A stretch of 64,000 nucleotides of DNA, taken from the NCBI GenBank assembly GCA_030390025.1, contig CM059431.1:156428001-156492000 (forward strand). The letters are read 5' to 3'. Shown here in pieces: positions 3,615 through 38,039 of this stretch (positions within the stretch are counted from its first letter, which is position 1; each line of letters starts with the position of its first letter). The stretch is from Squalus acanthias (taxonomy: Eukaryota). The position numbers and the translations under genes are program-made. Below the pieces are notes generated by a model. That model had not been told where the DNA came from. It did not search any database and saw only the letters and a program-made list of their open reading frames with translations.

Positions 3615-5740
3615 TTCAGAGATTCAAAGTGATTTAGTTAACTCCGAAAATAGGGTCTTACATCTAAACAAAACAAACTAGGTAGGTACGATGGGTAAGT
3701 TGGCTAAGGTAGATTGGGAAACTACGCTAAAATGTATGACAGTAGAAATGCAATGGTTGGCATTTAAAGAACTAATACATAATTTACATCAAATATACAT
3801 TCCTTAACGGCAAACCCAAGGAAAAGTGGTCCAACCGTGACTAAGTAGAGAAGTTAAAGATAGTATTAGATCAAAGGAAGAGGCTTATAATGTTGCCAAA
3901 AAGAGAAGTAACCCGGAGGATTGGGAGGATTTTAGAAATCAACAAAGGAGGACCAAGCATTTGTTAGAAAAGTGATAATAGAATATTTGAGTGAATTCGA
4001 GAGAGACATCAAGACAGACTGTAAATGCTTCTATAGGTATGTAAAAAGGAAAAGATTAGCGAAAGTAAATGTGGTTCCCTATACAGGCTAAGGCAGGATT
4101 ACATTATATTGGGGAATAAGGTAATGGCAGTGAAATTAAACAAATACCTGGTGTCTGTCTTCACGGAAGAAGACACAAAACATTTCCCGGAAATAGTGGA
4201 TAACAAAGGGCCTGGCCAGAATGAGGAAATGAAAAACATTATTCGTATTAAAAAGTAGAACTGTAGAAATTCACGGGACTGATAGCCGATAAATCCCCTG
4301 GACCTGATGTCCTACATTCTAGGGTTTTGAAAGTGGTGGCTGTAGAGATAGTGGATGCATTGGTTGTCATTTTCCAAAATACCATAGATTCTGGAACGGT
4401 TCTCGCGGATTGGAAGGTAGCAGATGTAACGCCACTATTTAAGAAAGGAGGGAGAGAGAAAACGGGGTCTACAGACCAGTTAGCCTGACAACAGTCGTAG
4501 GGAAAATGTTAGAATCTATTATTAAGAGCGTGGTAACAGGGCACTTAGAAAATAATAATAGAATTAGTCTGTCAACACGGAATTATGAAAGAGAGAAGCA
4601 AAATACAGCGGATTCAGGAAACTGAAATAAAAACAGAAAATGCTGAAAATACACAGCAGGTGAGGCAGCATCTCTAGAGAGAGAAACAGAGTTAAAGTTT
4701 CAGGTCGATGACCTTCTGACGAAGGTCATCGACCTGAATCGTTGTCTGTTTCTCTCTCTAGAGATGCTGCCTGACCTGCTGAGTATTCCCAGCTTTTTCT
4801 GTTTTTATTTATTTAAGATAAATCGTGTTTGATATATCTATTAGCGTTTATTGAGGTTCTAACTATCAGAATAGATAAGAGGGAACCAATGGATATGGTG
4901 TATTTGAATTTTCAGAAGGCATTAGATAATGTGCCACATATGAGGATATTAAACAAAATTAGGGCTCCTGGGATTGGAGCTAATATACTAGCATGGATTG
5001 AGAATTGGTTAACGGACAGAAAACAGTGTATAGGAATACACGGGTCATTTTGGGATTTGCAGGTTGTAACTAGTGGGCGACCGCAATGCTCAGTGCTTGG
5101 GCCTCAGCTATTCACAATCTACATCAATGATTTAGATGAGGGGATCAAATGTAATATATCCAAGTTTGCTGATGATACCAATCTGGGTGGGAATGTAACT
5201 TTTGAGGAGGATGCAAGGAGCCGTCAAGGGGATACAGACAGGCTAATTGAGTTGGCAAGAACATGGCAAATGTAATATAATGTGGAGAAATGTGACTTTA
5301 TCCACTTTGGTAGGAATAATAGAAAAGCAGTGTTTTTTATAAATGGTGAGAGATTGGGAAATGTTAGTGTTCAGAGGGACCTAGATGTCCTTGTACAAGA
5401 ATCACTGAAAGTTAACATGCAGGTACTGCAAGCAATTAGGAAAAAAATGTCATGTTGGTCTTTATTAAAAGAGGATATGAGTATAAGATTAAAAAGGTCT
5501 TACTGCAATTATATAGGGTCCTGGTGAGACTACACCTGGAATATTGTGTATAGTTTTGTTCTCCTTATCTAAGGAAGGATATACTTGCCACAGAGGGAGT
5601 GTAAGGAAGGTTTAGCAGACTGGTTCCTGGGATGGGGGATTGTCCTATGGGGGGAGATTGAGTAGCCTAGGCATATATTCCCTAGAGTTTAGAAGAATGA
5701 GAGATGATCTCATTGAAACATACACAATCCTTACAGGGAA
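3615..5740 (+). mobile_element. Degenerate CR1 ORF2 fragment (RT region), interrupted at ~4596-4810
   Basis: ORFs 4829..5275 (VYLNFQKALDNVPH, SVLGPQLFTIYINDL, KFADDT) and 5282..5527; colinear with 13.8-15.7 kb. Confidence 0.9.
4596..4810. mobile_element. Penelope-derived foldback (inverted terminal sequence) mini-element with hammerhead-like core
   Basis: Perfect 18-bp stem 4699-4716/4721-4738 with TGAC loop; outer arms 4625-4690/4745-4810; arms match both termini of the Penelope element at 35025-36496. Confidence 0.8.
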
Positions 5741-5744
5741 TTAA

Positions 5745-8700
5745 GCGGGTCAGAGAGCCTGGGATATTGGGCATTAAGTGCATCAGAGAAACATGGATAT
5801 TTAGCCTTTAGAGGATCTGAGATCCCTCAACTTTCAGCCTGTGGAAATTTAGAGTACCTGAGCTATTGCGCCGGAAAATGATCAGCGTACACTGATGTAT
5901 ACAGAGGGACAGACTAACATGGCTGTAGGGCGTGTACATGATTTAGAATAACTGCGTTACTGATTCTGTACAAGGTCAGAATACCTGGGCTATTGAATCG
6001 ACGGAGGGTCAGAGTACCATGAGCTAATGAATCTGTAGATGGCCAAAGTACCCTGAACTATGTAGATTGTTGGTATAAACTGGGCTTATGAGTCTGTATA
6101 GGGTCAGTATTCCTGGGCTATTGAGACAGCAGATGTTCAGAGTATCCTGAGCTATTGGTCTTCTAGATGGTCAGAATTATATGGTCTACTGGGTCTTCAG
6201 ACGGCCCGATTAACTTGGGCTATACAGAAGTTTCCTCAGGTACTGAACTTATAGAACGTCGGATTATCTCAACAATTGGGCATGTAAAGGATCAGAGTAC
6301 CTTACCTATATAGCAGCACAGTGTATGATGATTCTTTAGGACTTTACAATGTCAAATTACACTGGGATGAGGGCCTATCGTGTGTCAGAGCACCCTGGGC
6401 TATTGGGAGGTTAAAAGTAAACTGCGCTTTTGGCCCTATTGAGGGTCAGATTACCCTGGAAATTTCAGAGGGCATAAGTACGTTGGGCTATGAAGAGGGT
6501 CACATATCGTGGGGTATTTGGCAGAGAGGGTCAGATTATCCTGGGCTTTGCGGCCTTTAGAGGATCACAGTACCATGGGCTATTGGAACTATAGAGGGAC
6601 AGTGATCCCTGACAATAAGAGAGTGAGAGTACAGGGGGGTATTTGGCCAGAAGAGGAACAGAGTATTCTGGGCTTTGGGTCCTTTAGAGGATCACAGGAC
6701 CATGGGCTATTGGTATTTTAGAGGGTCAGTGAGCTCTGGTAATAGGAGAGACAGAGTACCTGTGCTATTGGCCCTGTAGAGGGTCAGATTATCCTAGGCT
6801 ATTGGACATGTAAGGGGTCAGTATGCCCTGGCATATTAGGTCTGTCGAAGGTCAGAGCATCATGGTCTATAGGGCCAGTTTAGCATCAGAGTAAACTGAT
6901 CTATTTGGCCTGTGAAATGTCAGGGTACCCGGTACTTTTTGAGGAAGCAGAGATGCAGAGTTCTCTGGGCAATTTGGGCTATAAAGGGTCAGAGTAACGT
7001 GACGATTTGGGTCGGCAGATGGTCAGCGTAAACTGGCCTACATAGAGTATTAGAGTACCCTTGACTATACAGACTGTTAGAGTACCTTTTGGCTACACAG
7101 AGTGTTAGAGTACACTGGACTACACAGAGTGTTAGAGTACCCTGGGCTACACAGTGTGTCAGAGTACCCTTGGCTACACAGAGTGTCAGAGTACCCTGGA
7201 CTACACAAACTGTCAGAGTACCCTGTGCTACACAGAGTGTCAGAGTATGCTTGGCTACACAGAGTGTCAGAGTACCCTGGGCTACACAGAGTATCAGAGA
7301 ACCCTGGACTACACAGAGTGTTAGAGTACCCTGGACTACACAGAGTGTCAGATTAACCTGGACTACACAAAGTGGCAGAGTACCCTTGGCTACACAGAGT
7401 GTCAGAGAACCCTTGGCGACACAGAGTGTCGGAGTACCCTGGAATACGCAGAGTGTTAGAGTACCCTGGGCTACACAGAGTGTCAGAGCACCCTTGGCTA
7501 AACAGAGTGTCAGAGTACCCTTGGCTACACAGAGTGTCAGAGAACCCTTGGCTACACAGAGTGTCAAAGTAACCTGGACTACACAGAGTTTTAGAGTACC
7601 CTGGACTTAACAGAGTGTCTGCGTAGCCTGGACTACACAGAGTGTCAGAGTACCCTGGGCTACACAGAGTGTCAGAGTACCCAGGACTACACAGATTGTC
7701 AGAGAAGCCTGGACTACACAGAGTGTTAGAGTACCCTGGGCTATGTATCCTGTAGACGGTAAGAGTACCGAGGTCTTTGGGCATGCAGAGCATAAGATTA
7801 TCCAGTGTAATGCGGAGAATCAGAGTAACATATGCTATGCAGATGGACAGAGTAACCTGCGATATTGGGAGGACTATATTATCCTGGGCTCTATAGAACG
7901 TCAGAGTATCATGGGATATTAGGCCTCTCAGAGCACAGATTACCCTGGTCTGTTGGGCCTGCAGAGAGTAGGTATCCCCTAGGCCATTCAGGGACTCAGA
8001 GTATCCTGGGCTATAAAGAGGTTCATTGTTATCCATGGCTATTTAGGCCTCTGGAAGATAAGAATACCCTGGGCTATTGGGCCATCAGAGGTACAGATTA
8101 CCCAGGGCTATTGGCCTGCAGAGGCAAAGTACTCTCAGTTTCAATCCTGGAGAGGTTCAGAGTAGCTGAACCATTGGGCGTGTAAAATGTCAGAGTACCT
8201 TTGCTATAAAGTGGTTCGGAGTACTGCGTGTCTTTGGAGTATGCGTGTCAGAAAACCATGGGCTGTTCAGAGGGATAAATTACCCTGGGTTAGTGGGTCT
8301 GTATAGGTTCAGGGTACCCGGGACACGTAAGCAAGTAGAGGGTTAGATTATTTTGGTCAATTTGGCCTATAAAGGGTCAATGCACCTTAGTGAATTGGGC
8401 CTGCAGAGGATCAGAGTACCCTAATGTACACAGAGTGTCAGAATTGTCTGGGCTATTGCCCTGCAGTGGGACAAAGAACACTCAGATATTGATCCTGCAG
8501 AGGGACAGAGCAGCTGGGCTATTCGGCGTGTAAAGTGTCACCGTACCCTGGGCTATAAAGAGGTTCAGTGTTCCCCGGGATATTGGGTTATTCAGAGTGT
8601 CAGAATACTATAGCCTGTTCAGAGTGTTATAGTAACCTGGGCAAGTGATCTGTAGAGGGTCAGATTACCCTGAGATATTGGTTATGTCAGTGGAGTGTCA

Positions 8701-8760: not shown

Positions 8761-10597
8761 AGTTAAATATAGTATTAGATCAAAGGAAGAGGCATATAAA
8801 GGTGCCAAAAAGACTAGCAATCCTGAGGATTGGGAGGATTTTAAAATTCAGCAAAGGAGGACCTAAAATTTGATAAAGAAAGGGAAAATAGAATATGATA
8901 GTAAACTAGCGAGAGACATAAAAACAGACTGTATAAAGCATCTCTAGGTATGTAAAAACAAAAAGATTAGCGAAAGTAAATGCGGGTCCTTTACAGGATG
9001 AGACAGAAGAAATTATAATGTGGAATAAGGATTTGTCAGAGAAATTAAACAAATAATGTGTGTCTGTCTTCACGGAAGAAGATGCAAAAAACTTCCCGGA
9101 AATAGTGGATTACCAAGGGTCTAGCGAGAATGAGGAAATGAAAGATATTAGTATTAGTAAAAAGTAGTACTGGAGAAATTAATAGGACTGAAAGCCGGTA
9201 AATGCCCTGGACCTGATGGCCTACAACCTAGGGATTAGAAAGAGTTGGCTATAGAGATAGTATTTGCATTGGTTGCCATTTTCCAAAATTCCCTAGATTC
9301 CAGAACGTTTTCCGTGGATTGGAAGGTATCAAATGTAACCCCACTATTTAAGAAAGGAGGAGGAGAGAAAACGGGGAACTGCAGACCAGTTAGCTTGATA
9401 TCAGAAGTAGGGAAAATGCTCGAATCTATTATTATGGACGTGGTAACAGGGAACTTAGAAAATAATAATAGGATTGATCAGCGTCAACACGGATTTATGA
9501 AAGGGAAATCTGTTGGGTTTCTTTGAGGTTGTACATAACAGAATAGATAAGGGGGAACCAGTGGATGTGGTGGACTTGGATTTTCAGAAGGCATTCGATA
9601 AGGTGCCACACAAGAGGTTATTAAACAAAGTTAGAGGTCATGGGATTGGGGTTAAATTACAAGCATGGATTGAGGATGGATAACAGGTAGAAAACAGAGA
9701 GTAGGAATAACCGGGTCATTTTCAGGTTGGCAGGCTGTAACCAGTGCGTTACCGCTAGGATCAGTGCTTGGGACTCAGATATTCACAATCTACATCAATG
9801 ATATGCATGAGCGGACCAAATGTAATATATTCCTGTTTGCTGATGATTCAAAGCTGGTTGGCAATGTAAGTTGTGAGGAGGATGCAAGGAGGTTTCAATG
9901 GGATATGCACAGTTTTGTTGAGTGGGCAAAAAAATCGCAAATGGAATAGAATGTGGAGGAATGTGAAGTTATCCACTTTGATCGGAAAAATAAAAAAGCT
10001 GAGGACTTTTTTAAGGGTGAGCGATTAGGAAATGTTGGTTTTCAGAGGGACCTGGGTGTCCTTGTACACGAATCACTGAAAGTTAACATGCAGGAAAAAC
10101 AAGCAAGTAGGAAAGCAAATGGTATGTTGGCCGTTATTAGAAGAGGATTTTAGTATAAAAGTAAAGACGTCTTACTGCTATTATATAGGGCCCTGGTGAG
10201 ACCTCACCTATGAGAACAGTTTTTTCTCCTTACGTAAGAAGGATATACTTGCCATATAGGGAGAGCAATGACGGTTCACCAGACTGGTTCCTGGAATGAG
10301 GGGATTGTCCTATGCGGGCAGTTTGAGCAGGCTAGGCCTATATTCTCTAGAATTAAGAAGAATGAAAGGTGATCTCATTGAAACATACACAATTCTTACA
10401 GGGCTTCAGGGGGTAGGTGAAGCGTGGATATTTCCCATGGCTGGGGAGACCAGAACCAGGGGTCAGAATCTCAGAATAAGGGGACGGCCATTTAGGACTG
10501 AGATGAGGAGAATTTTCATCACTCAGAGGTTGGACAAGCTTTGGAAGGGCTAAATGGCCTAACCCTGCTCCTATTTATTATGTTCTTATGTTCTTAT
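8761..10597 (+). mobile_element. 5'-truncated degenerate CR1 inserted in the tandem repeat
   Basis: ORFs 9245..9526, 9764..9949, 9953..10153 and 10296..10553 are RT/C-terminal pieces; ends in TATGTTCTTATGTTCTTAT tail. Confidence 0.9.
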
Positions 10598-11935: not shown

Positions 11936-12096
11936 TAAGCAAATAGCTCCAATTTTCCACAATAAGACCGAAGAGAACTCAACTCTAAGTCATGTATACC
12001 ATCGAACTCACAGTCGTGCCAAAATGAGTTTATTTACACTTTTCATTTGTGCTGGGCTGTCCAGCACTCAGTCATGAGTGAGCATATTCTGAACAT

Positions 12097-13017
12097 GCTC
12101 CTCCTGTAACATGTGGGAAATCAGGGACGCTTCCTGTATCCCTGACAACCATGTGTGCGGGAAGTGTGTCCAGCTGCAGCTCATGTGGGACCGCATGACG
12201 GCCCTTGAGCTGCGGATGGACTCACTTTGGAGCATCCACGATTCTGAGAGGGTTGTGGATAGCACATTTAGTGAGTTGGTCACACCGCAGGTTAAGGCCA
12301 GCGTAGATAGTACATGGGTGACCAAAAGGCAGAGCAAGGGCAGGAAGGTAGTGCAGAAATCCCCTGGGGTTGTCTCCCTTAGCAACAGGTTCACCGCCTT
12401 AGGTGCTGTTGTCGGGGGGGATGACTCATCGGGAGAAGGCACCAGCAGCCAGGCTCATGGCACCATGACTGGCTCTGTTGCAAAGAAGGGAGGGAAAAAG
12501 AGTGGCAGGGCTATAGTAATAGGGGATTCGATTGTAAGGGGAATAGATAGGGGTTTCTGTGGTTGCGACCGAGACTCCAGGATGGTATGTTGCCTCCCTG
12601 GTGCAAGGGTCAAGGATGTCTCGGCGCGGGTGCAGAACATTCTGGAGGGGGATGGGGAACAGCCAGTTGTCGTGATACATGTTGGTATCAACGACGTAGC
12701 TAAAAAAAAGGGAAGAGGTCCTACAAGTAGAATTTAGGGAGTTAGGAGCCAAGCTAAAAAGTAGGACCTCGAAGGTAGTAATCTCTGGATTACCACCAGT
12801 GCCACGTGCTAGTAAGAGTACAGAGAACAGGATAGTTAGGCTAAATACGTGGCTTGAGCAGTGGTGTAAGAGGGAGGGTTTTAATTTTTTGAGGCATTGG
12901 AACCAGTTTTGTGGTAGGTGTGACCTATACAAAATGGACGGTCTACACCTGTGCAAAGATGGAACTGATGTTCTCGGGGTAATTTTTAATAAAGCAGTTC
13001 GGGAGCATTTAAACTAG
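12097..13017 (+). pseudogene. CR1 ORF1: CxxC..CxxC zinc-finger/leucine-zipper region plus SGNH/GDSL-like esterase; frameshift at A-run 12702-12709
   Basis: CSSC..CGKC, LQLMWDRMTALELRMDSL, AIVIGDSIVRG, CCLPGARVKD, IHVGIND, DGLHL split over ORFs 12111..12737 and 12799..13017. Confidence 0.85.
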
Positions 13018-13091
13018 TATGGCAGGGGGCTAGAAACCTATGTAGTGAAACAGAGGAAAGTGAAAGGCGGACAGAAATAAATGGTAAAAGG

Positions 13092-15957
13092 GTGAGGAAC
13101 AAAAAACAAAGGGCCAAACTAATTCATAAAAAATGTGAGCATAAAAAAAGCCTGAGGGTTTTATACCTTAATGCGAGAAGCATCAGGAACAAGGTAGATG
13201 AATTAGCTGTGGAAATAGAGGTTAATAATTATGATCTAATTGGGATTATGGAAACATGGTTGCAGGGTGAGCAGGGCTGGGAGCTTAACATACAGGGGTA
13301 TTCAGTATTTAGGAAAGATCGACAAAAAAGAAAGGGAGGAGGGGTAGCATTGCTGGTAAAAGAGGGGATAAATGCAATTGAAAGGAAGGATATTAACTCA
13401 GTTAATACAGAATCTATATGGGTGGAGCTAAGAAATAGCGAGGGGCGAAAAACATTAATAGGAGTGGTATATAGGCCTCCAAATAGTAAAATAGAGGTTG
13501 GGGAGGGTATCACGAGGGAAATTAGAGAAGCGTGCAATAAGAGCACAGCTGTCATCATAGGTGACTTTAACTTTCATATAGATTGGACTATCCTAATCAG
13601 TAAAAATAATGAGGAGGAGGAATTCCTTGAGTGTTTAAGGGATGGTTATCTGGATCAATATGTCGAGGAACCAACTCGGGAACAGGCTATATTGGACTGG
13701 GTACTGTGCAATGAGAAGGGACTAATTAGTAATCTTTTTGTACGGGGACCCTTGGGTCAGAGCGATCATAACATGATCGATTTCTCACTCGAAATGGAGA
13801 GCGAAGAAATTGACTCAGAGACTAAGGTCCTGAATTTAAACAAGGGGAATTATGATGCCATTAGACGGGAACTGAGTAGGTCTGATTGGACAACGTTCCT
13901 GGGAGGACTGGAGGTAGATAAACAATGGCAAGCATTTAAAGATAGAATGACAAAATTGCAAAAATTGTTTATACCAATCTGGCATAAAAGGAAATCTAAA
14001 AAGGTGACTCAACCGTGGATAACAGGGGAAATTAGAGACAGCATAAAATCCAAAGATAGGGCGTATAAAATAGCCAAAAAAAGCGCCAGAGCGGAAGATT
14101 GGGAACAGTTTAAGATAGAGCAAAGGAGGACAAAGGGCTTAATCAAGAGGGGCAAAATAGCTTACGAAAGCAAGCTGGCGGAAAATATAAAAACTAACTC
14201 CAAAAGCTTTTATAAGTATATCAAGAGGAAAAGACTGGTGAAAACCAAAGTTGGTCCATTGCAGTCAGATACGGGGGAATATATAACGGGAAATAAGGAA
14301 ATGGCAGACCAACTAAATACATACTTTGGGTCAGTCTTTACGAAGGAAGACACAAAAAACCTCCCTGGGATATCGGGAAAAATAGGGACATTGGCAAAGG
14401 AGGAACTGACGCAATTCAATATCTCTAAGGATATGGTGTTAAGGAAGCTAAAGGGATTGAAGGCAGACAAATCCCCAGGGCCTGATAACATGCATCCTAG
14501 GGTACTGAAGGAGGTGGCCCTAGAGATAGCGGATGCACTAAGTATGATTTTTCAGAATTCATTAGACTCGGGAAAAGTGCCCATGGATTGGAGGGTAGCT
14601 AACGTTACCCCACTATTCAAAAAGTGGGGTAGGGAAAAAGCAGGTAATTACAGACCTGTAAGCCTTACATCAGTTGTGGGCAAAATGCTGGAGTCCATCA
14701 TTAAGGATGAAATAGCGGAGCACTTAGCAAATGGGGACAGGATAGGACAGAGTCAACATGGATTTACAAAGGGTAAATCGTGCTTGACTAATCTATTGGA
14801 ATTTTTTGAGGGAGTAACTGGTAAAATAGATGGGGGAGAGCCAGTAGATGTGGTGTACCTGGACTTCCAAAAGGCCTTCGATAAGGTCCCACATAAAAGA
14901 TTAGCATGGAAAATTGAAGCTCATGGGATAAAGGGGAAAGTATTGACGTGGATAGAGAACTGGCTGTCAGATAGAAAACAGAGTTGGAATAAACGGCTCA
15001 TTTTCTGAATGGCAGGCAGTAACAAGTGGGGTACCGCAGGGATCTGTCCTGGGTCCCCAGCTGTTCACAATTTACATTAATGACCTGGATCAGGGAGTCG
15101 GATGCAGCATTTCCAAATTTGCAGACGACACTAAACTAGGAGGGGGGGTGGGCTCAGAGGAGGAGACCAGGAAGCTCCAGAGCGATTTGGACAGACTGGG
15201 TGATTGGGCGGATAAATGGCAGATGCACTATAATGTGGACAAGTGCGAAGTTATCCACCTTGGGTGCAGGAACGGGAGGGCAAATTATTATTTAAATAGC
15301 AATAAATTGGGAGAGGGGGAAGTACAGAGAGACCTGGGTGTTCTTGTACACCAGTCACTGAAGGCGAGCATGCAGGTGCAACAGGCGGTCAAGAAGGCAA
15401 ACGGTATGCTGGCCTTCATAGCAAAAGGGTTGGAATACAGGAACAGGGATACCTTGCTGCAGCTGTACAGGGCACTGGTGAGACCACACCTCGAGTACTG
15501 TGTACAGTTTTGGTCGCCTCATCTGAGGAAAGATGTTCTTGCCATGGAGGGGGTGCAGCGGCGATTCACCAGGCTGATACCTGGAATGGCGGGATTGACC
15601 TATGAGGAGAGACTATGTAGTTTAGGGATGTACACACTGGAGTTTAGAAGATTGAGAGGGGACCTCATAGAAGTGTATAAAATTCTGACAGGTCTAGACA
15701 GACTAGATGCAGAAGGAATGTTTCCCTTGGCGGGTGAGAACAGAACTAGAGGACATAATTTAAGGATAAGGGCTAAACCATTTAGGACAGAAATGAGGGG
15801 GAATTTCTTCACTCAGAGGGTGGTGAACCTGTGGAACTCATTGCCACAGAGGGCAGTGTACACCAGCTCATTAAATATATTTAAGAGGGAATTAGATATA
15901 TTTCTACAGGCAAAAGGGGTTAAGGGTTACGGAGAGAAGGCGGGGACGGGATACTGA
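13092..15957 (+). pseudogene. CR1 ORF2 (APE endonuclease plus reverse transcriptase), one frameshift near 14975-14985
   Basis: YLNARSI, ETW, VYRPP, GDFN, SDH (APE); KSPGPD, NYRPVSL, QHGF, LDFQKAFD, then [10 protein letters not shown] and FADD in another frame continuing into ORF 15148..15957. Confidence 0.93.
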
Positions 15958-17677
15958 ATTGAAGGATCAGCCATGATCTCATTAAATGGCGGAGCAGGCT
16001 CGAAGGGCCGGATGGCCTACTCCTGCTCCTATCTTCTATGTAATCTATGTAATCCAGAATCCCTCTCTTGTGTAATTAAATCAGCACTCCATTGAAAACG
16101 TCGTGCATTTTAATATTACTTTACAGGATTCTTCAATTAGATGATTTTGTAATATATTAAAAAGCTTCTGTCTCTACACACCTACATTATACATTCAGAT
16201 GTCCACATTTCTAATTGATATTGTGGATCAAGTTCTTATGCGTTAATTACAAACTCCGAACATTGGCGGAGCTGCATCGACTATAAATATCATTGTCCAG
16301 CTCCGTGCCGCGAAATCGCATGACCTGAACTGAACTCTACTTACCTGTAAGCTAAATTGTCAAATGCTTTGTTAATATGTAGCACAAGTAATAGCGATAC
16401 AAAATATTAATGTAATATATAGGACGGAATGAATGCCTTTAAAATTGGAATATAATTATTTCTGCCCACCCCTGGTAATAACTCCTCTTCAATTCTGGAC
16501 ATCCCATTCTTGGAAATATTCTTCCTCTGAATCACAAAGTACAGGTTTCGAACACTGATCGCAGCGAGCTGAAACCAAAGCTGCGGCACTGAATTCTGCG
16601 ATAATAACCAGCGGCATACTCACCTATGGTGGGTGTAGATTGCCCACTCCTCCTGAGCGTATCGGTCATCGGAGCCCTTAAAACCTACCGACCTCTAGTA
16701 TCTAACGGCTCTAATCGCAGGTATTAAGATGGTTATGGATATTGATGGAGTATTCCATTGAAGCCTGTCAGGCTGTAACTTCACCCTGAAACCTTCGACA
16801 ACTTCAGCCACAAAATCAAGAATTCACCTGATTTTGACTAGACATAATCTTCTCTATGATTCCTATCTCATTTTCCACCAACTTTTTCATGTATAATTTC
16901 TTGAGCAGTCATGTGCAGCATAATCATTAATGTAATTTTTCACGCTTTAATATTGTCCTGCAGCCAGTGCTGATGCCAGAGCAACTCGTTTTTGCATCGC
17001 CCGGATATTAAGCCTGATCAGCGGAAAAACTGGTTGCTGCACCAACTCTCTTTCGCCAATCGCAATATTGCTGTGTGAGTAGATATTTAGCAATCAGTAA
17101 AATCAAGGTGTTTTTAAGCTGTTTTCAATAAAACGAGGATATAGCATGTTATAATCACAAATAAATTGATACGTAAATGAGAGACAATCATGACGACAGA
17201 TTATGTGTTTCTGATAGCTGGGAACGCGCAAAGGGGTAAGAAATTTAATATTTTCTTTTGCATATATAGATCAGGGTAGTATAGGACAAATCAGATGAAG
17301 TTGTTGGGAATATCTGAGGTAATTCTGATTCGGAAATTACTTGTGCTTCGTGATTTATCAATGTTAAAAGTCAATTAAATTCCTGTCTTACTTGGCTAAT
17401 TCTACCTGAGAACAAGATGGAAAATACTTTCCGAATACTAAGGATATATTGAATGATTGTTGAGATAAGATATAACGAAGTAAATTTGAAATCGCTCCTT
17501 TAACTTGGTTGGAGTTACATTATTAGGGGACACTTCATCAGTTGTAGGTATCAGTTAGAATTATATGTTTTCGATTTTAAGGTAAGTTTATTATTTGTTT
17601 TTTTCATTAAAATATATTTCATCAAAGTTGTATACATATATGGCACGGTATGTGAAACAATATATTGGAGAATTCAC

Positions 17678-20224: not shown

Positions 20225-20469
20225 CTGAAAAAAATATTAAGATAACCAAAAAATATTATCAATAATGAGTACTCTGTTGCCTGTGAGTAGCGATCTTGTT
20301 ACATTCATTAAAAAAAAACGTTTTTACTCGCATGATGGAAACAAATTCTGCAGAAAATAATGAGTTTATTTATTTTCCATTAAAAGTTCAGTGATTAGGT
20401 AAAAATATGATATTATATTTTAAACGTGAAAGAACATTTAAATAATAAAAATTTAACACGCAAACTCAC

Positions 20470-20933: not shown

Positions 20934-21020
20934 TCCAGTCTCTGTATTTTACAATCATTGTTCTTTAGAACGGCAGAGAGCCGTTTCACTCCCGAATCTC
21001 CCAGTTTATTATCATTGAGT
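20934..21020 (-). CDS. NLR LRR exon (87 nt, ribonuclease-inhibitor-type repeat)
   Basis: ttttag|A CTC AAT..CTG GA|gtgagt; LNDNKLGDSGVKRLSAVLKNNDCKIQRL. Confidence 0.92.
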
Positions 21021-21894: not shown

Positions 21895-22172
21895 AGACTG
21901 AAGATCTGATAAAAAGTCACATGAGAGATGAGGGAAAAAAAATCGTCAACAAGTTATGAGGATCCGAAATGCACTGCCTGAAAGGCTGGCGGAAGCATAT
22001 TCAACATACCGTTCAAAAGGCAATTGGATAAATACTTGAAGGAGATAAAATTACAGGGCAATGGAGAAAGAGCATGGGAGTGGGACTAATTGGATAGCTC
22101 TTTCGTAAAACCAGAACAGGCAAGTGGGGCTGAACGGCCTCCTTCTGTGCTGTAAGATTCTGTGATTCTGTG
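21895..22172 (+). mobile_element. CR1 3'-end fragment in NLR intron
   Basis: GAGATGAGGGAAAA..AATGCACTGCCTGAAAGG..TTCAAAAGGCAATTGGATAAATACTTGAAG and GGCCTCCTTCTGTGCTGTAAGATTCTGTGATTCTGTGA tail. Confidence 0.75.
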
Positions 22173-22523
22173 AAATTATGTTATATCCAAATACAAATCT
22201 AATATATGGTGACTAAGAGGATAGCTCACTGAATAATCCAGAATCCCCCGTGGTGCGAAAAGTGCGCAACTTTCGGATGTAATGTTGTCAACACTCAATC
22301 TGATTTAATAAAATGAGCACCAAAGCTTTTTCAGGTATTACCAGAACAGACACTCCGCTGCCGTCTCTTACCGTCCCTTTTAGCACAGCAGATAATTAAA
22401 TGAGAGAATGTGCCCATTAATTGATCGAATTCAGTATATGTTTTTGCCATTAAGTAATATTATGCCACATGCCTGTAAAACAGTTATTGTTCATAATGTT
22501 ATTTATCGATTTTGATGAATTAC

Positions 22524-24228: not shown

Positions 24229-25101
24229 CTTGAATATGAACAACGTCATTGGTGTAGTCATTGCAAATAAGGAGGTAAATATTTAACAGATCAGTTCTAT
24301 AATGAAGAATCTAATCGTCAAAAAATATAAAAAATATCTAAAATATCTCAACGATGAGTGATTCCTTAATTAATTTACAGTTTATTGCAATAGACAGTCA
24401 TAGAATAAAAAACAGTAGCATTTCTAAAGTACCTGGAAAATGTAACATGTAGCAAGCTTGAGGATTTGCTGCTGGATTTTCAACTTCTGGTAATGAAGAT
24501 TTCTAAACTTCGATATAAATTGCAAAGTACATGTTGCTGGTATTTTATGTTCACAGGTCAATTTGAGTTAGGAGCGACTCCTGCTTTCGTCGTGCAACAA
24601 ACAATGTTGGGGACACGCGGGTCTGGCCAGAAAACGAGTTCGTTCATTATATTCTAACCCCGGGGATTCCATTTGTTCTGATTCTGCTGTTCAATGCTTT
24701 AACCGTTAGACACATTTTAGTGGCCAGCGGAGCCCGCAGGAGACTCCGGGGTCAGAGTAGTGAGGAGAATCGCAGAGACCCAGAGATGGAAAGCCGAAAG
24801 AAATCCATCATTTTACTGCCTGTTATGTCGGGAAATTACATATTATTATGGACTCTCTTTATGGTGCATTATATTTGGTGGCAAATGTGGTTTTTTTTGC
24901 GTTTCAGTCTGTATTAATACCTAGTTATTTTACAAGAAGTTTGCTATTATTTTCTATATATATCTACACAAACACAAAAATATTTACATGCACATATACA
25001 TAAAATACAGATGTAAACATACATTGGTATCAATATATGAATTTACCATATTTTAAAGCGCAGTGGAGATTTCTTACACCCATAGATACTAATAATGTCA
25101 A

Positions 25102-25712: not shown

Positions 25713-25800
25713 ATCATAAAATTTAAGTTCAAATCAATTTCTCGTCATAAATAATAAACATTGTTATTTTGACTGTAAATTAGATTCGGATACCACCTAC

Positions 25801-27775: not shown

Positions 27776-30700
27776 AAGAACATAAGAACATAAGAAATAG
27801 GAGAAGGAGTAGGCCAATCGGCCTCTCGAGCCTGCTCCGACATTCAATAAGATCATGGCTGATCTGATCCTAAGCTCAAATCTAAAGAACACAAGAAGTA
27901 GGAGCAGGACCCGGCCACTCAGCCCCTGGGCCCGCTCCGTCACCCACAGGGCCTTGACCGATCCGAACTCAGCCTCATGTCCAATTTCCTGCCCGCTATC
28001 CGTAAACCCTAATTCCCTTTACTTCTAGGAAACTGTCTATCTCTGTTTTAAATGTATTTAAAAATGTAGCTTCCACAACATCCTGGGGCAGCAAATTCCA
28101 CAGATCCACTACCCTCTGAGTGAAGAAGTTTCTCCGCATCTCAGTTTTGAAAGAGCAGCCCCTTATTCTAAGTTTATGCCCCCTAGTTCTAGTTTCACCC
28201 AACCTTGGGAACAACCATACCGCATCCACCCGATCAAGCCCCTTCACAATCTTGTATGTTTCAATAAGATCGCCTCTCATTCTTTTGAACTACAATGAGT
28301 AGAGTCCCAATCTACTCAACCTCTCCTAATATGTCCAGCCCCTCATCCCCGGGATTAACCGAGTGAACCTTCTTTGTACTACTTCGAGTGCAAGTATGTA
28401 TTTTCTTAAGTATGGACACCAAAACTGTATGCAGTATTCCAGGTGCGGTCTCACCAATACCTTATATAACTGCAGCAACACCTCACTGTTTTTATAATCT
28501 AGCACCCAAGCAATAAAAGCCAACATTCCGTTGGCCTTCTTGATCACCTGCTGCACCTGCATACTAACTTTTTGATTTTCTTGCACTAGGACCCCCAGAT
28601 CCCTTTGTACTGCAGTACTTTCCAGTTTCTCGCCATTAAGATAATAACTTGGTCTCTGATTTTTCCTGCCAAAGTGCATAACCTCACATTTTCCAATATT
28701 TTATTGCATCTGCCAAGTCTCCGCACACTCACCCAGCCTGTCTATATCCCCTTCTAGGATTTGTATGTCCTCCTCACTTTCTACTTTCCCTCCCATCTTT
28801 ATAACATCTGCAAACTTTGATATGTTACACTCGGTCCTCTCCTCCAAATCGTTAATATAGATGGTAAAGAGTTGGGAAACCAGCACCGACCCCTGCGGAA
28901 CACCACTGTCTACTGGTTCCCAGTCCGAGAATGAACCATTTATCCCAACTTTCTGCTTCCTGTTAGATAACCAATCCTCCACCCATTCCAGAATATTACC
29001 CCAAATCCAGTGATTTTTTATCTTGAGCAATAATCGTTTATGTGGCACCTTGTCGAATGCCTTCTGGAAGTCTAAATTCACTATGTCCACTGGTTCCCCT
29101 TTATCCACCCTGTACGTTATGTCTTCAAAGAACTCAAGCAAATTTGTCAGACATGACTTCCCCTTCATAAAGCCATGCTGACTATGTCCTATTAAATTAT
29201 GTTTATTTAAATGTTCCATTACTGTCTCCTTAATAATAGACTCCAAAATTTTACCCACCACAGATTTTAGGCTAACGGGTCTATAATTTCCAGCCTTCTG
29301 CTTGCTACTCTTTTTAAATAAGGGTGTTACATTAGCAGTTTTCCAATCTGCCGGGACCTTTGCTGAGTCCAGGGAATTTTGGAAAATTATTACCAAAGCA
29401 TCCACAATCCCTACTGCCACTTCCTTCAAGACCCATGGATGCAAGCCATCAGGTCCAGGGGATTTACTCGCCTTGAGTCCCATTATTTTACTGAGTACCA
29501 ATTTCTTAGTGATTTTAATTGTATTTAGCTCCTCCCCCCCTAGAGCCCCCTGTTTGTCCAGTGTTGGGATATTCTTATTTTCCTCTACCGTAAAGTCTGA
29601 AACAGAATGGCCTGAAAATTAAACCTAATACGCAAGAGTACGCATTGTGTACTCTCGCGTATTCGATCCCGAATTGCCGGTTTCCTGCATGCACTGCGCA
29701 TGCGCGGAAAACCGGCACTTCGTGAATTGCAAAGGGGGCGGTTCCTAAGTGAACCGTTTGCGCGCTACAGGCTGTGCGCACGCAGTGCACTTCGTTTTGT
29801 TTCAGCTTTGAATGCGCAGGCAAGTGGTGAAGATTTTACACACAAAGAAAACAGGCGTAGGACCCCCTTTTGACCAGGTAAGTAGTTAATTAAGTGTTAT
29901 TTTAAATTTTTTTCAACAGGTTTATCTTTTTTAGAGACTTTAAAGAAAGGTAAGTTTATTTTTAGAACATTTAAAAAGATTTTTAAATTTTTCAAAATGT
30001 TTTTGGTTAAAGTGGTTAATTTATTTCACTATACTTATTTTATTAATGTGTTGGCTTTTTTAAAAATTTAATTGAGGTTTAGCTGTTCTTTTTGGGGTTT
30101 GTAGTATTCATAGCTTTGACAGCTCTTGCCGTCAAAACTATGAATGAAAGATGGTGTGCTGCCATTGTCTCCAACTAAATCACTTGATCCCAGAGCTCGC
30201 ACGAACTAATTGCGCCTTTGGGACACGCACACACTGCACGGTTGCAACAGGGAGAGGCTTTGAATCTAAAGTTCGTGTGAATGTTTGTTCAACATTTCTG
30301 ACATCTCCGTGTTTCCCACCTTTAATTTCCCGGTCTCATCCTCTAAGGGACCTACGTTTCCCCAAGCCACCCTTTTTTATTTTTATATAATTATAGAAAC
30401 TCTTGCTATCTGCTTTTATAGTTTTTGCTAATTTATTTTCTTAATCTATCTTCCGTTTCTCAATCAATCCTTTAGTTACTTTTTGCTGTCTTTTGAACAC
30501 TTCCCAATCTTCTATCCTCCCACTAAGGTTGGTTACCTTATATGTTCTGTTTTTTAGTCGGATACTATCCTTAATTTCTTTACTTAGCCAAGGATGGCTA
30601 TCATTTCTCTTACACCCTTTTTTCCTGAGTGGAATATATATTTTTTGAGAGTTGTAAAGTAACTCCTTAAATGAAAACCACTGCTCATGTACCGTCTTAC

Positions 30701-31903
30701 CCTTTAATCTATTTTCCCAGGCCACTTTAATCAATTCCGCCCTCATACCATAATCGTCTCCTTTATTCAAGCTCAGTACGCTTGTTTGAGAAGCAAACTT
30801 CTCACCCTCTAATTGGATAAGGAATTCAACCATGTTATGGTCACTCATTCCAAGTGGATCCTTAACTAGGACATTATTAATCCTGACTCATTACACAGGA
30901 CCAGGTCCAAGTTTGCTTGGCCCCTTGTATGATCAGTTACATACTGCTCCAGAAATCCATCAATAATACAGTGAATAAATTCTTCTTCAACGCTGCCCTG
31001 CCCAATTTGATTTGTCCAGTTAATATGATAGTTAAAATCCCCCATAATTATAGCTGTTCCCTTATTACATGCCCCAACTATTTCCTCATTAATACATCTT
31101 CCAGCAGAGTTGCAACTATTAGAAGGCCTATATACTACTCCCACTAGTGTTTTTTGCCCCTTATTATTCCTTATCTCCACCCAAACTGTTTCATTATCCT
31201 GATCCTTTGACCCAATATCATTTCTCTGTATTACAGTGATTCCTTCCTTTATTAACATAGCCACCCCACCTCCCCTTCCTTCCTGCCTGTCCTTCCTGAT
31301 TATTAAATACCCTGACATATTTAATTCCCAGTCGTTGTCACCCTGCAGCCATGTTTCTGTAATGGCCACAAGATCATACCCATACGTAGTTATTTGTGCC
31401 GTTAACTCATCCATTTTGTTACGAATGCTACGTGCATTCAGATAAAGAAATTTCAAATATGTTTTGTGACACTTAGTTCCTGCTTTTTCCTTTTTTACCC
31501 CTATAACTTTTACTCCGTACCTTCTGTCCCTTCCTGACACGCTTTCCTCTGTCTCCCTGCTCAGGTGCCCAACCCCCTGCCACTTTAGTTTAAACCCTCC
31601 CCAACAGCACTCGCTAACACTCCCCCTAGGACAGCGGTCCCGGCCCTGCCCAGGTGCAGGCCGGCCGGATTGTACTGGTCCCACCTCCTCCAGAACCGGT
31701 TCCAATGTCCCAGGAATTTGAATCCCTCCCCCTTGCATCATTCCTCTAGCCACGTATTCATTTGAAATATTCTGCCATTTCTACTCTGACTAGCACGTGG
31801 CACTAGTAGGAATCCTGAGATTACTACCTTTGAGGTCCTACTTTTTAATTTACCTGCTAACTCCCTATATTCTGCTTTTAGGACCTCATTACCTTTTTTA
31901 TCT
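27776..31903 (-). mobile_element. CR1 LINE (ORF1 end to 3' tail), multiple stops, with a double 3' tail and candidate TSD ATAAAT
   Basis: ORFs 30866..31753 (APE), 30441..30848, 28701..29501 (RT), 28326..28679, 27996..28280; ATAAAT at 27770-27775 and 31904-31909. Confidence 0.93.
29610..30278. mobile_element. Non-autonomous (MITE-like) insertion in CR1 ORF2
   Basis: Interrupts CR1 codons LNKH|SVS; GAATG duplicated at 29605-29609 and 30279-30283; internal hairpins at 29675-29716 and ~30106-30144. Confidence 0.65.
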
Positions 31904-32369
31904 ATAAATGTTACCTTTCACTTATCGGCCCAAACCCGGATGTTGACCAGTTCTTGCTTCATGCGGGCATGAACTGCCTCATTTACTGATTAATTGCGAA
32001 TGGAACTGAACAGTGTGCAGCGATCAGCGAGGAGCACCAATTCTGAATTTTTGAAGGAAGGTCAATGATGAAGCAGCTGACGAGAATTATGCCTAGCTGG
32101 CTACCGTTTAAAAATCAAGGTTAGTCCATGACATCCTGTACTCTTATTACGGATGTATTCATTGAAAGTTCCAGGAAGAATAATTTGACAGAGAGATATT
32201 TCAGAAGAGCACACATGTTGTTTACACAATTTCAGGGTGGCTACTGAGGTTAATTAAGTATAGCATAAAGTATTACTTATATCGTTAATTGCACAGAACA
32301 ATGTCTGTCTAAACAGTCATTCATATGACTCATTTAACACAATACGATTCGAAGATATATGAAGCATAC

Positions 32370-32503
32370 CTCATGATCTGTTTCAGTAAATATTTTTGCC
32401 TTTACAAACGACTGACTAACGTCCTCCACTACCGGTTCAATTGACTGTTCTAGTCTCTGACGGTAGAGAAGGATCATTCTGCGCAGATCGATATCCGATG
32501 TTT
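32370..32503 (-). CDS. NLR N-terminal helical (death-fold/CARD-like, inferred) domain exon A
   Basis: ttgacag|AA ACA TCG..CAT GAG|gtatgc; TSDIDLRRMILLYRQRLEQSIEPVVEDVSQSFVKAKIFTETDHE; 134 nt, ends phase 0. Confidence 0.75.
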
Positions 32504-33119
32504 CTGTCAAGGTGTAAATTAGAACAAATCAATATACAATGGCCGCTATGAAACAGTCAATACACTGAACTAACTGCTATCACAACAGCAGTTGTTTAGA
32601 GTCTGTCAAGCAGTGACACGGCCATTGGTATTCAGACTTAACGCTGCCTTTTCTTGCTGGAGTTAAGAGAAACAACCCAGGCCTTTCAACATTTGGTCGC
32701 TGTTTAAAATAATTAAGAATTAGAGAGGTGGAAGCACATAGGAACCTATTCCAGTCAGTGGGGATGGATTCTATGTCTGGAATCTGGAGCTGATGAACCG
32801 ATACATTGAGGACTACAACAAGGGGAGAGGAGGGACTGGAGTGCAACAGAGAGGAAGTGAAGATGTTTTTAGAGACAAGGTGGGCGAGGGATTTGCAGAT
32901 GAATAGGAGTATTTCACAAATGATCAACGTGGGATAAGGAATCAAAGGTCAGTTAATGATGGCATTACGGATCCGTGGAACTAAGGGTTTATTTGAATCG
33001 GAGTAGTGGAGCTCTGTCCAAGCTGAAATTTATAACGGGCTGTGCCAAAGGTCGTTTAAAGAATTGAGTCTAAAACTCACACAAGCATGCATAAAGTAAC
33101 ATCATTCAGTTCCTTCCCA

Positions 33120-33502
33120 TCAACGGTGCACCGTGGCTGCAGAGCGTACCATCTATAAGATGCACTGCGGCAATTCGCCAAGGCTTCTTTGGCAGCAACT
33201 CCTAAACCCGCGACCTCTACCACCTAGAAGGAGAAGTTGAGCAGGCGAATGGGAACACCACCACTTGCAATTTCCCCTCCAAGTCACACACCTTCCTGAC
33301 TTGGAAGTATATCGCCGTTCCTTCGCCGTCGCCTGGACAAAATCCTGGCACACACTCCCAATAGCATTGTGGGAGTACCTTCACCATACGGACTACATCA
33401 TTTCAAGAAAGCTGCTAACAAATACCTTCTCAAGGGCAATTAAGGGAGGGCAATAAATGCTGGCCTTGCCAGCGACGCCCACATCACTTAAATGAATAAA
33501 AA
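33120..33502 (+). mobile_element. 3' end of the second LINE family (as 1813-3612)
   Basis: TATAAGATGCACTGCGGCAATTCGCCAAGGCTTCTT..GGGCAATAAATGCTGGCCTTGCCAGCGACGCCC is the reverse complement of ~1825-2190. Confidence 0.8.
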
Positions 33503-35750
33503 TATATATATTTATATTAAAGCGCATGTCCAGAAAATTAACATATAATTATTTCTGAAGATGATCTGAGATTTCAGGTTACATTTCACAGTGTATCAGG
33601 AGCAGATCAGGTGTGTATGCGGTTTCACAGTGTATCAGGAATAAGCCAGATGCGCGTGGCTTTCAAAGCCTAACGGTATCCTGCCAGGATTGAATGGGGT
33701 TTCAAATTTTATCGGGATAATATCAGCTATCTAAGGGCTGAACTGTGTATACGAATTCTGCCAGGTGTCAAAGAGTCATACGGCACAGAAGGACGCCATT
33801 TGCCGATCGAGCCCGTGCCGGCTGTCTGTAGAGCAATCCAGTCAGTCCCATTCCCCCGCTCTATCACCGTATCACTGCAACTTTATTTCCCTCAAGTGAC
33901 TGTCCAGTCTCCCCCTAAAAACATTGAGTCTCTCCGCTTCCACCACTTCCGTCGGCAGCGACTTCCACGTCATCACCACTCTCTGTGTAAAAAGTTTTTC
34001 CTCACGTACACCCTTTTTCTCTTACACAAAATCTCAAATCTGTGTCCCTAATCCTTCTACCATCAACTAGTAGGAACAGCCTTTCCCCGTCTAGCCTATT
34101 CAAATCCGTCATAATCTTGTACACTTTTATCAAATCACGCCTCAAACTCCTTTGCTCTAATGAAAACAAATCCAGCTTCTCAAACGTGTCCCTGTAGCTA
34201 AGGTCCCCCATCCTTGGAACCATTCTGGTGAATCTCCTCTGCACCGTCTCAAGGGTCTTCAGATCCTCCCTAAAGTGTGGTGACCAGAACTCCAGCTGTG
34301 GCCCAACCAGCACTTTATAAAGGTTCAGCATAAATTCTCTACGTTTGTACACAATACCTCTATTTATGAAGCCCAGGATCCCATCTGCTTTGCTAACCAC
34401 TCTCTCAATATATTCTGCCACCATCAGGGACCTATACACATTAACTACCAGGTCCCTCTTTCACTGCACATTCTTTAAAATTGTGCCATTAAGTGTATAT
34501 TTGTTCCCCCTTTTCCTTCTGCCAAAATGCATCACCTCACATTTCTCTGTAATAAATTCCATCTGCCACTTGTCTGCCCATTCTGCTAGCCTTTCTATGT
34601 CCTGTTGCAGTCGATTGGCATCATATGTAATGTTTGCCATGCCCCCAACTTGGTATCATCGGCAAATATAGAAATTCGAATCAGTATTCCAATATCCAGT
34701 TCATTTCTATATAACATAACGAAGCAGTGGCCCCAGCAATGACTTTTGGGGAACACTACTGTCTACCATCCTCCAGTCTAAAAAACAGCCATTTACTGCA
34801 ACTCACTGATTTCTGTCCTTAAGCCAATTCCTTATCCAAGCTTCCACTGACCCACACATTCCATGAGCTTCAATTGTGTTAACCAATCTTCGATGTGGTA
34901 CTTTGTGAAACGCCTTCCTAAAATCCACGTTGACAACATCCATTTAATTCCCTTCATCAATTCTTTCTGTTACTTCATCAAAAAATTCAATTAGATTATT
35001 CAAACAAGATCTGCCTTTTACAAAAGCAAAATACTGCGGATGCTGGAAATCTGAAAAATCCCCAGAAAATGCTGGAAATACTCAGCAGATCAGGCAACAT
35101 CTGTGGAGATAGTAACAGAGTTAACGTTTCAAGTGTAAATGATACTGGCAGAACGAAAGACAGCTGCCATGTGGGAGAGAAAAATATATATAAAAAAGCA
35201 TAATATAGCCCATTGACTCCCACAGCTACCTGGACTGCACTTCCTCCCACCCCGCTTCCTGTAAGGACTCTATTCCATTCTCCCAGTTTCTCCATCTTCG
35301 CTGCATGTGCTCTGACGATGCCACCTTCCATACCAGTGCTGCGGACATGTCTTCCTTTTTCCTCAGCCGAGGATTGCAGTCTACTGTGGGTGACTGTGTC
35401 TGTTCTATTTCCCGCACTTCTGCTCTCACCCCTTCCCCTCCCTCCCGGAACCACGATAGGAATCACCTTGTATCACCTTTCACCCCACCAGGCTCCACAA
35501 TCAACGGATCATCCTCCGCCATTTCCGCCAGCTCCAGCGTGATCCCACCACACAACACATCTTCCCCTCATCTCCCTTTTCAGCATTCCGACGGGACCGC
35601 TACCTCCGCGATACCCTTGTCCTCTCCTTTATCACCCTCAACACTCCTTCCCCTTCACCCAGCACCTTTGCGTGCAAGCGCAGGAGATGCAATACAAGCA
35701 TTTTTATAACCGGCCTTATAACTGTCCAGGGCCCCAAACAGTCCTTCCAG

Positions 35751-36080
35751 GTGAAACAGCGATTTACTTGTACTTCTTCAAATTTGATATACTCTATTCG
35801 CTGCTCACGATGCAGTCTCCACTACATTTGGGAGAGCAAATGCAGATTGGCTGACCGCTTTGCGGAACACCTCCTTTCAGTAGGTAACGGTAAGCCCGAG
35901 CTTCCTGTCACCTGTCACTTTAATTCTCCACTCCACTCCCACTCAGACCTCACCGTCCTCTGCCTCTTACTCTGTTTCAATGAAGCTCAATCTAAGCTCG
36001 AGGAACAGCACCTCATTTTTCGATTAGGAACTTTACAGCCCACTGGACTCAACACAGAATTCAACAATTTCAGGCCATTA
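35751..36080 (+). pseudogene. Penelope GIY-YIG endonuclease domain remnant
   Basis: RFTCTSSNLIYSIRCSRCSLHYIWESKCRLADRFAEH..HFN..EQHLIFRLGTLQPTGLN (YIG mutated to YIW). Confidence 0.88.
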
Positions 36081-36393
36081 CCTCTGGTCCTATACTTTTT
36101 TTTACCATTTATTTTATTTCATTTTTTTTATTTATTTGTTTTCTCTCTCCCACATGGCAGCTGTCCTTCATTGTGCCAGTGATATTTACACTTCATCTCG
36201 AGAAATCTTTTGTTTCTTTACTTGTTCCATTACCATCTCCTTTTCCTTGAACCATCTCTTAATCTCTCTTAATATCTCTTAATCTCTCCTGCCTTCCATC
36301 CTTTCACAGGCCTTCCCTTTTGTTCTTTCCTTACCTCCCCCCTTTCCCTGCCCCTGCACTTGCTTAAAAACCTGTTCCATCTCCAGCTACTTC

Positions 36394-36432
36394 CAGTTCT
36401 GACGAAGGATCATCGAGCTGAAACGTTGGCTC
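36394..36432 (+). ncRNA. Minimal type I hammerhead ribozyme motif (degenerate) in the Penelope 3' terminus
   Basis: AGTT-CTGACGA-stem II (AGGATC ATC GAGCT)-GAAA-CGTT; the inverted left copy (~35116-35130) preserves GAAACGTTAACT, restoring stem I AGTT/AACT. Confidence 0.65.
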
Positions 36433-38039
36433 TGTTTCTCTCTCCACAGATGCTGCCTGACCTGCTGAGTATTTCCAGCATTTTCTATTTTCATTTCTGC
36501 CTTTTACAAATCCCTGTTGGCTCTCCTTAATTAGTTTATACCTCTCCATTGCCCGTAAAATTTTCCTTGATTATTGCTTCTAAAACTTTACCAACTACTG
36601 ATGTTAAACTGACGGACCTATAGTTACTGGATTGTCCTTACACCCTTTCATTGAACAATGGTGCCACATTTGGCACTTTCCAATCCTCAAGCCCTCCCCC
36701 GCATCTAAGGCAGTTTGGAAAATTATGTCAAGCGCTTCCACTAACTCCGCCCCCAAATTACCTTCTGAACCTGGGATTCAAGCCATCTGGGCCAGGCGAC
36801 TTGTCCACTCTAAGCATACCCAACCTTTTCTAGTACATCCAGTCTGTCAATTTTCACCCCTTCCATTGCTTCTAACTTTTCCACTCCTGCCGATATTTTG
36901 TCAGCATCCACCTCCTTAGTAAACACCGATACAAATTACTCATTGAGTATTTAGCCTTGCCCTGCACCTCCAAGCATCTATCACCTTCTTTGTCTTGAAT
37001 AGGCCCCAGCCCGGTTCTTACTACCCGCTTACTGATTACATGCCGGTAGTAGATTTCTCGGTTCTCTTTTATGTTAAACGCCATTCTACACTCATATTTT
37101 CTCTTTGCCAATCTTATTTTCATCTTCACTTCCCCTCTCAACTTATTGTATTTGGTCTGGTCCTCCCTGTCTTGAAGAATTAACCTGAAATGCATCATAC
37201 ACCCTCTTTTTGTGTTATCATCTTCTCTATCTCCCTCGTCATCCAAGGAGCACTTGCTTTTGTTCCTTTACCATTCCCTCTTGTTGGAATGTACCTAGCC
37301 TGTACTTGGAACATCTTCTCCTTAAAGATTGTTCCGTTACAGATTTTCCTGTCAGTCTTTGGTTCCATTTTACCCTGGCTAGATTGTTTCGCATCCCGTT
37401 GAAGTTAATCCTATTCCGGATTAAAAGCTCCAATCTAGATTTGTCCTTGCTCCTCTCCATTGCTAATCTAATTTTTATGAGACGATGATCACTCATGCCC
37501 CAAATGTTCTCCCACAGACACTTGTTCGACCTGGCCCATCTCATTCCCCAGCACGAGATCCAGCAATGCTTCCTTCCTGTTTGGTCCTGAAACATATTGG
37601 TCAAGGAAATTCTCCTGAACACATTTCAAAAATTCCTCCCCCTCCTTTCCCTATATCCTAGTATTATCCCAATCAATATTTGGGTAACTAAAGTCCCCCA
37701 ATATCACCTCTCGGCAGCTCTTCAATATATCTGCGATATCCCTGCAGATTTGCTGCTCTACCGCCCTCTCACTATTTGGAGGCCTATAGAATAACCCCAA
37801 AAGCGTGATGTTATGCTTTTTGCTCCTCAACTCTAACCAAATGGATTATATCCTTGTCCCCTCAAGAACATCCTCCCTTTCCAACACTACAATGAGTTCC
37901 TTTATCAGCACTGCCACCGCACATCCGTTTTTTCCTTCCTTATCTTTTCTGAACACCATGTAACCTTCAATATTAAGTGCCCAGTCCTCACCGTTTTAAG
38001 CCACGTTACCGTTATTGCCACAACATCATATTTCTACAC

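Follow-up and report, generated by a model that had tools for sequence, protein, structure and literature searches.

Here we describe a stretch of 64,000 nucleotides of the Squalus acanthias genome (GenBank assembly GCA_030390025.1, contig CM059431.1, positions 156,428,001 to 156,492,000 of the forward strand; hereafter the window), in which two Penelope-like retroelement insertions interrupt two long interspersed elements (LINEs) of CR1 type at the same codons of the reverse transcriptase (RT) gene. CR1-type LINEs occupy ~36% of the non-satellite part of the window (1-47400), and two of the six copies that span the RT motif region carry an insert: copy A, with a decayed second open reading frame (ORF2), holds insert 1, and copy B, of a distant subfamily, holds insert 2. 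The RT regions of the two hosts are 58% identical. Positions 4817-5272 of copy A match Pfam RVT_1 (3.1e-09), and both hosts align to the near-intact copy D, in which Exo_endo_phos (3.4e-09) and RVT_1 (1.3e-14) are found; the hosts' ORF2 thus has the APE-type endonuclease and RT of a CR1-type LINE. The label CR1, as against L2 or related clades, is our assumption, which comes from the original prediction and from known motifs rather than from a tree. Copy D itself shows a frame change near 12700 and a single frameshift in ORF2 near 14956-15008, and its ORF1 piece, with no Pfam match, carries what we take to be a GDS esterase-like motif.

The original prediction had placed a foldback in a plus-strand CR1, between QHG.MK and ..KSCL, and a Penelope element in a minus-strand CR1, between ESQQGFVKGR and SCLNNLIEFF, and both breaks were found as described. 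Insert 2 begins with an inverted arm, in which the tail and the end of the pseudo-long terminal repeat (pLTR) are joined to an inverted internal piece (35131-35197) that corresponds to 36124-36193; a frameshifted ORF remnant and a sense pLTR follow (Table 1). The RT core is missing and the remnant itself has no Pfam match; however, over 98% of its length it is 55-58% identical to proteins P0011-P0013 of whale shark, devil ray and zebra shark, which carry GIY-YIG (PF01541, E 8.6e-05 to 0.0019), P0011 also RVT_1. Through these relatives, the C-terminal GIY-YIG domain after a telomerase-like RT identifies an endonuclease-bearing Penelope-like element, and so does the pLTR with an inverted 5' copy and an optional 30-40-nt tail, in agreement with the family named in the original prediction. 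The relatives further show CxRRKCxTC and CxRC...H...H, that is, the CX2-5CxxC linker and CCHH motif that mark Neptune/Nematis, and the element is placed in Neptune by these motifs, not by a tree; the third linker cysteine is lost from the window copy. Translated, the element terminus matches a section of a horn shark gene model at 80% identity; these matches mark the window as DNA of cartilaginous-fish type.

Insert 1 is a foldback whose arms are 87% alike over 188 nt, the left one inverted with a tail of ~30 nt and the right one sense and tail-less. It turns at a putative minimal hammerhead core near 4716, where a motif scan found CTGACGA-stem-GAA with the final GAAA word decayed, and the DNA hairpin has a predicted energy of -87.5 kcal/mol. 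Rfam gave no hammerhead match on 4500-4900, only sub-threshold hairpin matches, and the RNA folds of the insert arms are unremarkable (z 0.52, -0.89 and -1.79). The corresponding motif of insert 2, recognised by eye, failed the motif scan.

Table 1. Positions of the two insertions, their target duplications, their hosts and the empty homologous sites (window coordinates)
Feature	Position	Strand	Basis or remark
Insert 1, foldback with two Penelope pLTR ends head to head	4597-4807	+	arms 87% alike over 188 nt
Left copy, degenerate 15-bp target duplication of insert 1	4582-4596	+	10/15 to right copy; 12/15 to empty sibling site, by eye
Right copy, target duplication of insert 1	4808-4822	+	11/15 to empty sibling site
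Insert 2, truncated Neptune-type Penelope-like copy	35025-36495
Inverted 5' arm of insert 2: tail and pLTR end (35025-35134), fused to inverted internal piece	35025-35197	-	internal piece matches 36124-36193
Frameshifted Penelope ORF remnant: RT thumb, CX4CXXC-type linker, GIY-YIG endonuclease (Neptune-type layout)	35209-36080	+	protein alignment, tblastn
Sense 3' pLTR of insert 2, tail-less end, putative decayed hammerhead motif ~36400-36424	36124-36495	+
Left copy, perfect 15-bp target duplication of insert 2	35010-35024	+	last AAA shared with tail end
Right copy, target duplication of insert 2	36496-36510	+
Host CR1-type LINE copy A, decayed ORF2 (endonuclease end and RT), split by insert 1	3620-5740	+	tblastn with copy D ORF2
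Host CR1-type LINE copy B, distant subfamily, split by insert 2	33850-37990	-	alignment to copy D
Near-intact CR1 copy D	12000-16050	+
Empty homologous site, copy D, perfect inverted repeat GATTT-N9-AAATC	14761-14779	+
Empty homologous site, copy A2, perfect inverted repeat, then 14-bp deletion	9492-9510	+
Empty homologous site, copy C, imperfect inverted repeat	29157-29171	-

Both insertions are flanked by target duplications in the same register. The duplication of insert 2 reads TCTGCCTTTTACAAA; it is perfect and 15 bp long, one base more than the 14 of the original prediction, which was right about its presence. Insert 1 also has a duplication, absent from that prediction; it is degenerate, and its 10/15 agreement is the best diagonal among 30x30 offsets (the empty sibling site used for scoring it in Table 1 is 9494-9508 of copy A2). 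At both inserts the left duplication copy continues into AGCAAAATAC. The downstream flanks of both resume at the same base of copy D, 14763, the first T of the Phe codon, and both duplications begin with the Phe codon of QxGFxKG(K/R)S and end with its Lys/Arg codon; the claim that the same CR1 codons were hit twice is therefore sound. The junctions share two to three bases with the element ends: AAA (tail) and TC (internal end) in insert 2, where the element's A run begins at 35022, and TTT (internal end) in insert 1, where these are also the first letters of the right duplication copy.

The target is an inverted repeat, GATTT-N9-A(A/G)ATC, with AGATC as the right arm in host B. In the window (1-47000), GATTT-N9-A[AG]ATC occurs twice, both times at an empty CR1 site. 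Its core, TTT-N9-AAA, is found at 2 of 3,901 positions of copy D, and this site alone among the 3,901 has the core together with an A-rich left and a T-rich right flank, a ranking that, like the motif, was defined after the two insertions had been seen. In copies D and C the site is empty and intact. Copy A2, 81% identical to copy A, is also empty; it lacks 14 bp between two AAATC words (9508-9510), beginning at the right edge of the target site, which could be the repair scar of a cut without insertion or the result of slippage. Copy E (minus strand, ~18790-18795) has lost ~180 bp across the same RT motif, and this may be due to chance, since the copy is old and has many other indels. The element's own tail (35040-35056, minus strand) contains GATTTCC, a word also present in an arm of the CR1 site (14770-14780), and it is a matter of speculation whether the endonuclease might recognise a motif that the element itself carries.

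The terminus occurs twice in the window, in inserts 1 and 2 only, and the two are 82-89% alike. This likeness and the shared register would fit a single event, such as a segmental duplication, conversion or the copying of an already interrupted CR1. Against this, the hosts are only 58% identical, the inserts differ in internal structure and lie in opposite orientation relative to their hosts, and each duplication fits the codons of its own host. Both inserts have the ~30-nt tail on the left arm and none on the right, and they share a polarity, which for insert 1 we infer from the tail alone, with the hosts on opposite strands (A plus, B minus). Host divergence and orientation effectively rule out a single origin, to which we assign next to no probability; the two are separate events, as the original prediction held.

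Two independent hits at one register may reflect a real preference or luck. If insertion were uniform, the probability that two insertions within CR1 share their register would be ~2.5e-4, or 3e-5 when both being in CR1 is included. End-weighted models on copy D give 1e-4 to 1e-3 with duplication lengths of 9-17 and 1e-3 to 1.2e-2 with a fixed length of 15, and this site accounts for 0.5% to 44% of the modelled coincidences, the top value arising under end-weighted models. Including both being in CR1, ~0.03 (uniform) to 1.6 such cases would be expected per 1,000 windows with one pair. The same-register pair is thus well beyond chance for one window, and not clearly so for a scan of many. A many-copy family with a weak generic preference for AT-rich DNA, in a genome about one third of which is CR1, would now and then produce such a case, and a scan over many windows would pick it out: the non-satellite part of this window is 36% CR1, ATT/AAT words occur 177 times in copy D, flanks in relatives are heterogeneous, and the scan took in 147 windows with notes from this genome alone, at 0.03-0.13 expected cases per 1,000 one-pair windows under uniform to weak models. 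What speaks against coincidence is that both ends of both duplications coincide, that none of the other 3,901 positions of copy D ranks as high as a symmetric T..A site, and that weak models give this site only ~0.5-10% of the coincidences. We regard luck, for which the original prediction also allowed, as possible, though less likely: with both duplication ends meeting where symmetry is highest, a real preference is favoured.

The preference could in principle be a specialisation. Elements of the Tx1 clade have an APE-type endonuclease. Retroelements that insert at a fixed spot of another transposon are known among these non-LTR (long terminal repeat) elements, namely Tx1L in Tx1D and Tx1-Mar in Mariner-N4_AMi (PMC4494074), and one Penelope-like group targets 28S rDNA (PMC8557442). 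Together with the fact that both window copies sit at the site, this would fit the original prediction of a CR1-targeting hyperparasite, a family or subfamily inserting mainly at the RT motif, where it might find a safe site and disable RT genes. The flanks of the family in relatives do not fit. Contigs of four of the 21 runs (X1 and X2 from organism A, X6 from B and X11 from D) were compared with 27900-37990 at 80% likeness; these runs contain at most 22% of the words of the stretch and thus come from relatives or from other individuals. In X11, the contigs with loose ends before the tail number 1,277, and their consensus is A/T throughout (no G or C in 30 letters) at an agreement of 0.40; after the sense end, 1,335 contigs of X11 (agreement 0.40) and 631 of X2 (0.45) are T-rich beyond the element's letters. 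In simulated flank mixtures of the five window CR1 sites, with an assumed background composition, G/C letters appear in the consensus once CR1-site flanks make up 20-25% or more. Because the 1,277-flank consensus has none, at most ~15-20% of the X11 junctions lie at the CR1 site. An element has been called target-specific when >20% of its flanks are of one sequence type (PMC4494074), and the share of this single CR1 site is at, and probably below, that mark, by an indirect estimate that comes from a relative species and lies close to the threshold. In contrast to the Tx1 elements, the family is dispersed.

Predicted proteins and contig joints agree with this. None of eight element-like proteins reading into the terminus has a QxGFxKG motif upstream, which is weak evidence in a set too small to count. 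Terminus matches in predicted proteins came to 1 of 23 and 1 of 15 candidates, both the same G-protein-coupled receptor (GPCR) gene model, and to nine among representatives, from which P0003 was dropped as spurious. In P0007, the same Penelope terminus is preceded by a fragment of a different LINE RT, and the junction, ~45 residues past the equivalent motif, may be an exon join. Among the ten tail-to-pLTR joints listed (374 contigs, four runs), the shorter side is at most 44 letters, and none visibly continues into a flank like that of host B, a result limited to one subfamily and one orientation. Among the joints listed (15 of 3,827) there is no terminus-to-CR1 joint; the expected empty-site joint is absent as well, so this is not counted as a negative, and the joints of three of the four runs were counted in part. 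Terminus patterns gave no loci in the viral, metagenome and genome contigs searched, and a relative's protein as query found none. For the family as a whole in relatives, the hyperparasite reading is disfavoured, and we consider it very improbable.

Before the tail, the X11 flanks are rich in A, and their T's are scattered across -6 to -13, a scatter that points to duplications of variable length. Since the consensus reads AAA at -12 to -10, a fixed TTT-N9-AAA is not the dominant target of the family in X11, and a strict family-wide rule of this kind was rejected. The original prediction of an endonuclease preference for the site is supported as a plausible sequence preference.

We propose that a very abundant, genome-wide Neptune-type element prefers quasi-symmetric A/T-rich targets, and that the CR1 RT site is a local hotspot as a by-product rather than the address of a CR1-specialised family; we put the probability of this reading at roughly 0.6. 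The conserved G-F-x-K-G-K/R-S codons of the CR1 RT would happen to spell a very good target, GATTT-N9-A(A/G)ATC, and distant CR1 subfamilies offer the same site because these codons are conserved. The GIY-YIG endonuclease, perhaps as a dimer, would nick the two strands at R-A^T-C, with ~15 bp between the nicks. The 3' ends so released would finish in A's, and each could anneal to one of possibly two U-rich start points in the element RNA, at the tail end and ~30 nt inside. Such priming would produce a 15-bp duplication around a head-to-head insert of which a single arm carries the tail and, the site being symmetric, would allow either orientation. Several points weigh against this proposal. 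There are two insertions (n = 2) and the motif was defined post hoc; host B ends in AGA, not AAA; the duplication of insert 1 is degenerate, at 10/15; copy D is empty despite its perfect site; the consensus of 1,277 X11 flanks has AAA rather than TTT at -12 to -10; and a third insertion at the site was not found in the relatives' contigs and predicted proteins examined. Moreover, variable lengths (9-17) bring the pair to only 1e-4 to 1e-3, with this site taking 0.5-7.5% of coincidences, and the data on both-strand cutting and on a dimer, which we carry over by analogy, concern a Poseidon rather than a Neptune element. A stronger form, in which the shark Neptune endonuclease reads a site near GATTT-N9-AAATC, the CR1 RT codons are a leading genome-wide hotspot that takes a few percent of insertions across CR1 subfamilies, and repair without insertion leaves deletions such as those of copies A2 and E, appears to us rather improbable, somewhat more so than coincidence.

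The Poseidon element in question is PAc of Anolis carolinensis. It cleaves and extends both DNA strands with a preference for ATT, initiates reverse transcription at two adjacent sites that bracket the tail, and is predicted to form a dimer (Frangieh et al. 2024, PMC11167929). The element here resembles it in the C-terminal GIY-YIG domain, the pLTR with a putative hammerhead and an optional 30-40-nt tail, and the AT-rich preference; however, it has the extra cysteine linker of Neptune/Nematis, and its junctions share two to three bases with the target, whereas PAc RT starts at RNA sites non-homologous to the cut DNA. In the available part of that report, no recurrent site in another transposon is described for PAc. 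The CX2-5CxxC linker before GIY-YIG, the CCHH motif and the C-terminal endonuclease are those of the Neptune clade, for which the bias discussed concerns microsatellites (Craig et al. 2021, PMC8557442), whereas the targets here are inverted repeats in coding sequence. Inverted arms, tails and nested insertions are standard for Penelope-like elements (PMC3846280), as are minimal hammerheads (PMC4209133); compared with the canonical unit, such as Pen2a_Av of Adineta vaga (PMC3846280), the duplication here is 15 bp long and occurs twice in the same LINE codons. Neither the open-access literature searched, which leaves Repbase reports aside, nor the available part of a preprint (10.64898/2026.07.22.740005) yielded anything relevant: the former nothing on a Penelope-like element targeting or recurring at a CR1 site, the latter nothing on targets. 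The element type and the insertion anatomy are already known; the new point is a candidate target of symmetric form with a stagger of 15 bp, drawn from two events.

Elsewhere in the window, copy C contains an insertion of ~680 bp at 29600-30281, MITE-like (miniature inverted-repeat transposable element) by eye, with deep coverage in runs X1 and X2 and almost none in X6 and X11. On the minus strand, 20466-24310 is an NLR-type gene remnant (NACHT, NOD2_WH, NLRC4_HD2) with a leucine-rich exon-like piece at 20466-20849, and 24567-24917 is a fragment like the shark GPCR-like family of protein P0001, with transmembrane segments by eye. Satellite arrays lie at 47430-64000 (40-bp unit), 38436-40221 and 42684-43459 (29-bp) and 7022-7743 (27-bp). 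At 40342-41125 and 43790-44581, a CR1 RT fragment is joined to sequence unrelated to it; the two units are 76% identical, each lies downstream of a 29-bp array, and they are likely a local duplication.

How Penelope-like elements choose and cut their targets is barely known, and the single in-vitro system that we found uses a Poseidon element. Two insertions that lie in opposite orientation and duplicate the same 15 bp of an inverted repeat naturally hint at symmetric nicking of both strands and at the priming of one of two RNA start points by each end. An assay of a Neptune endonuclease could use the site as its substrate. If the pair is due to luck, the locus holds two ordinary nested insertions. 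If the hotspot is real, one retroelement repeatedly breaks the RT gene of another, with a risk of homoplasy for insertion markers; and should the site be a leading hotspot genome-wide, one retroelement would steadily knock out the RT gene of the genome's dominant LINE.

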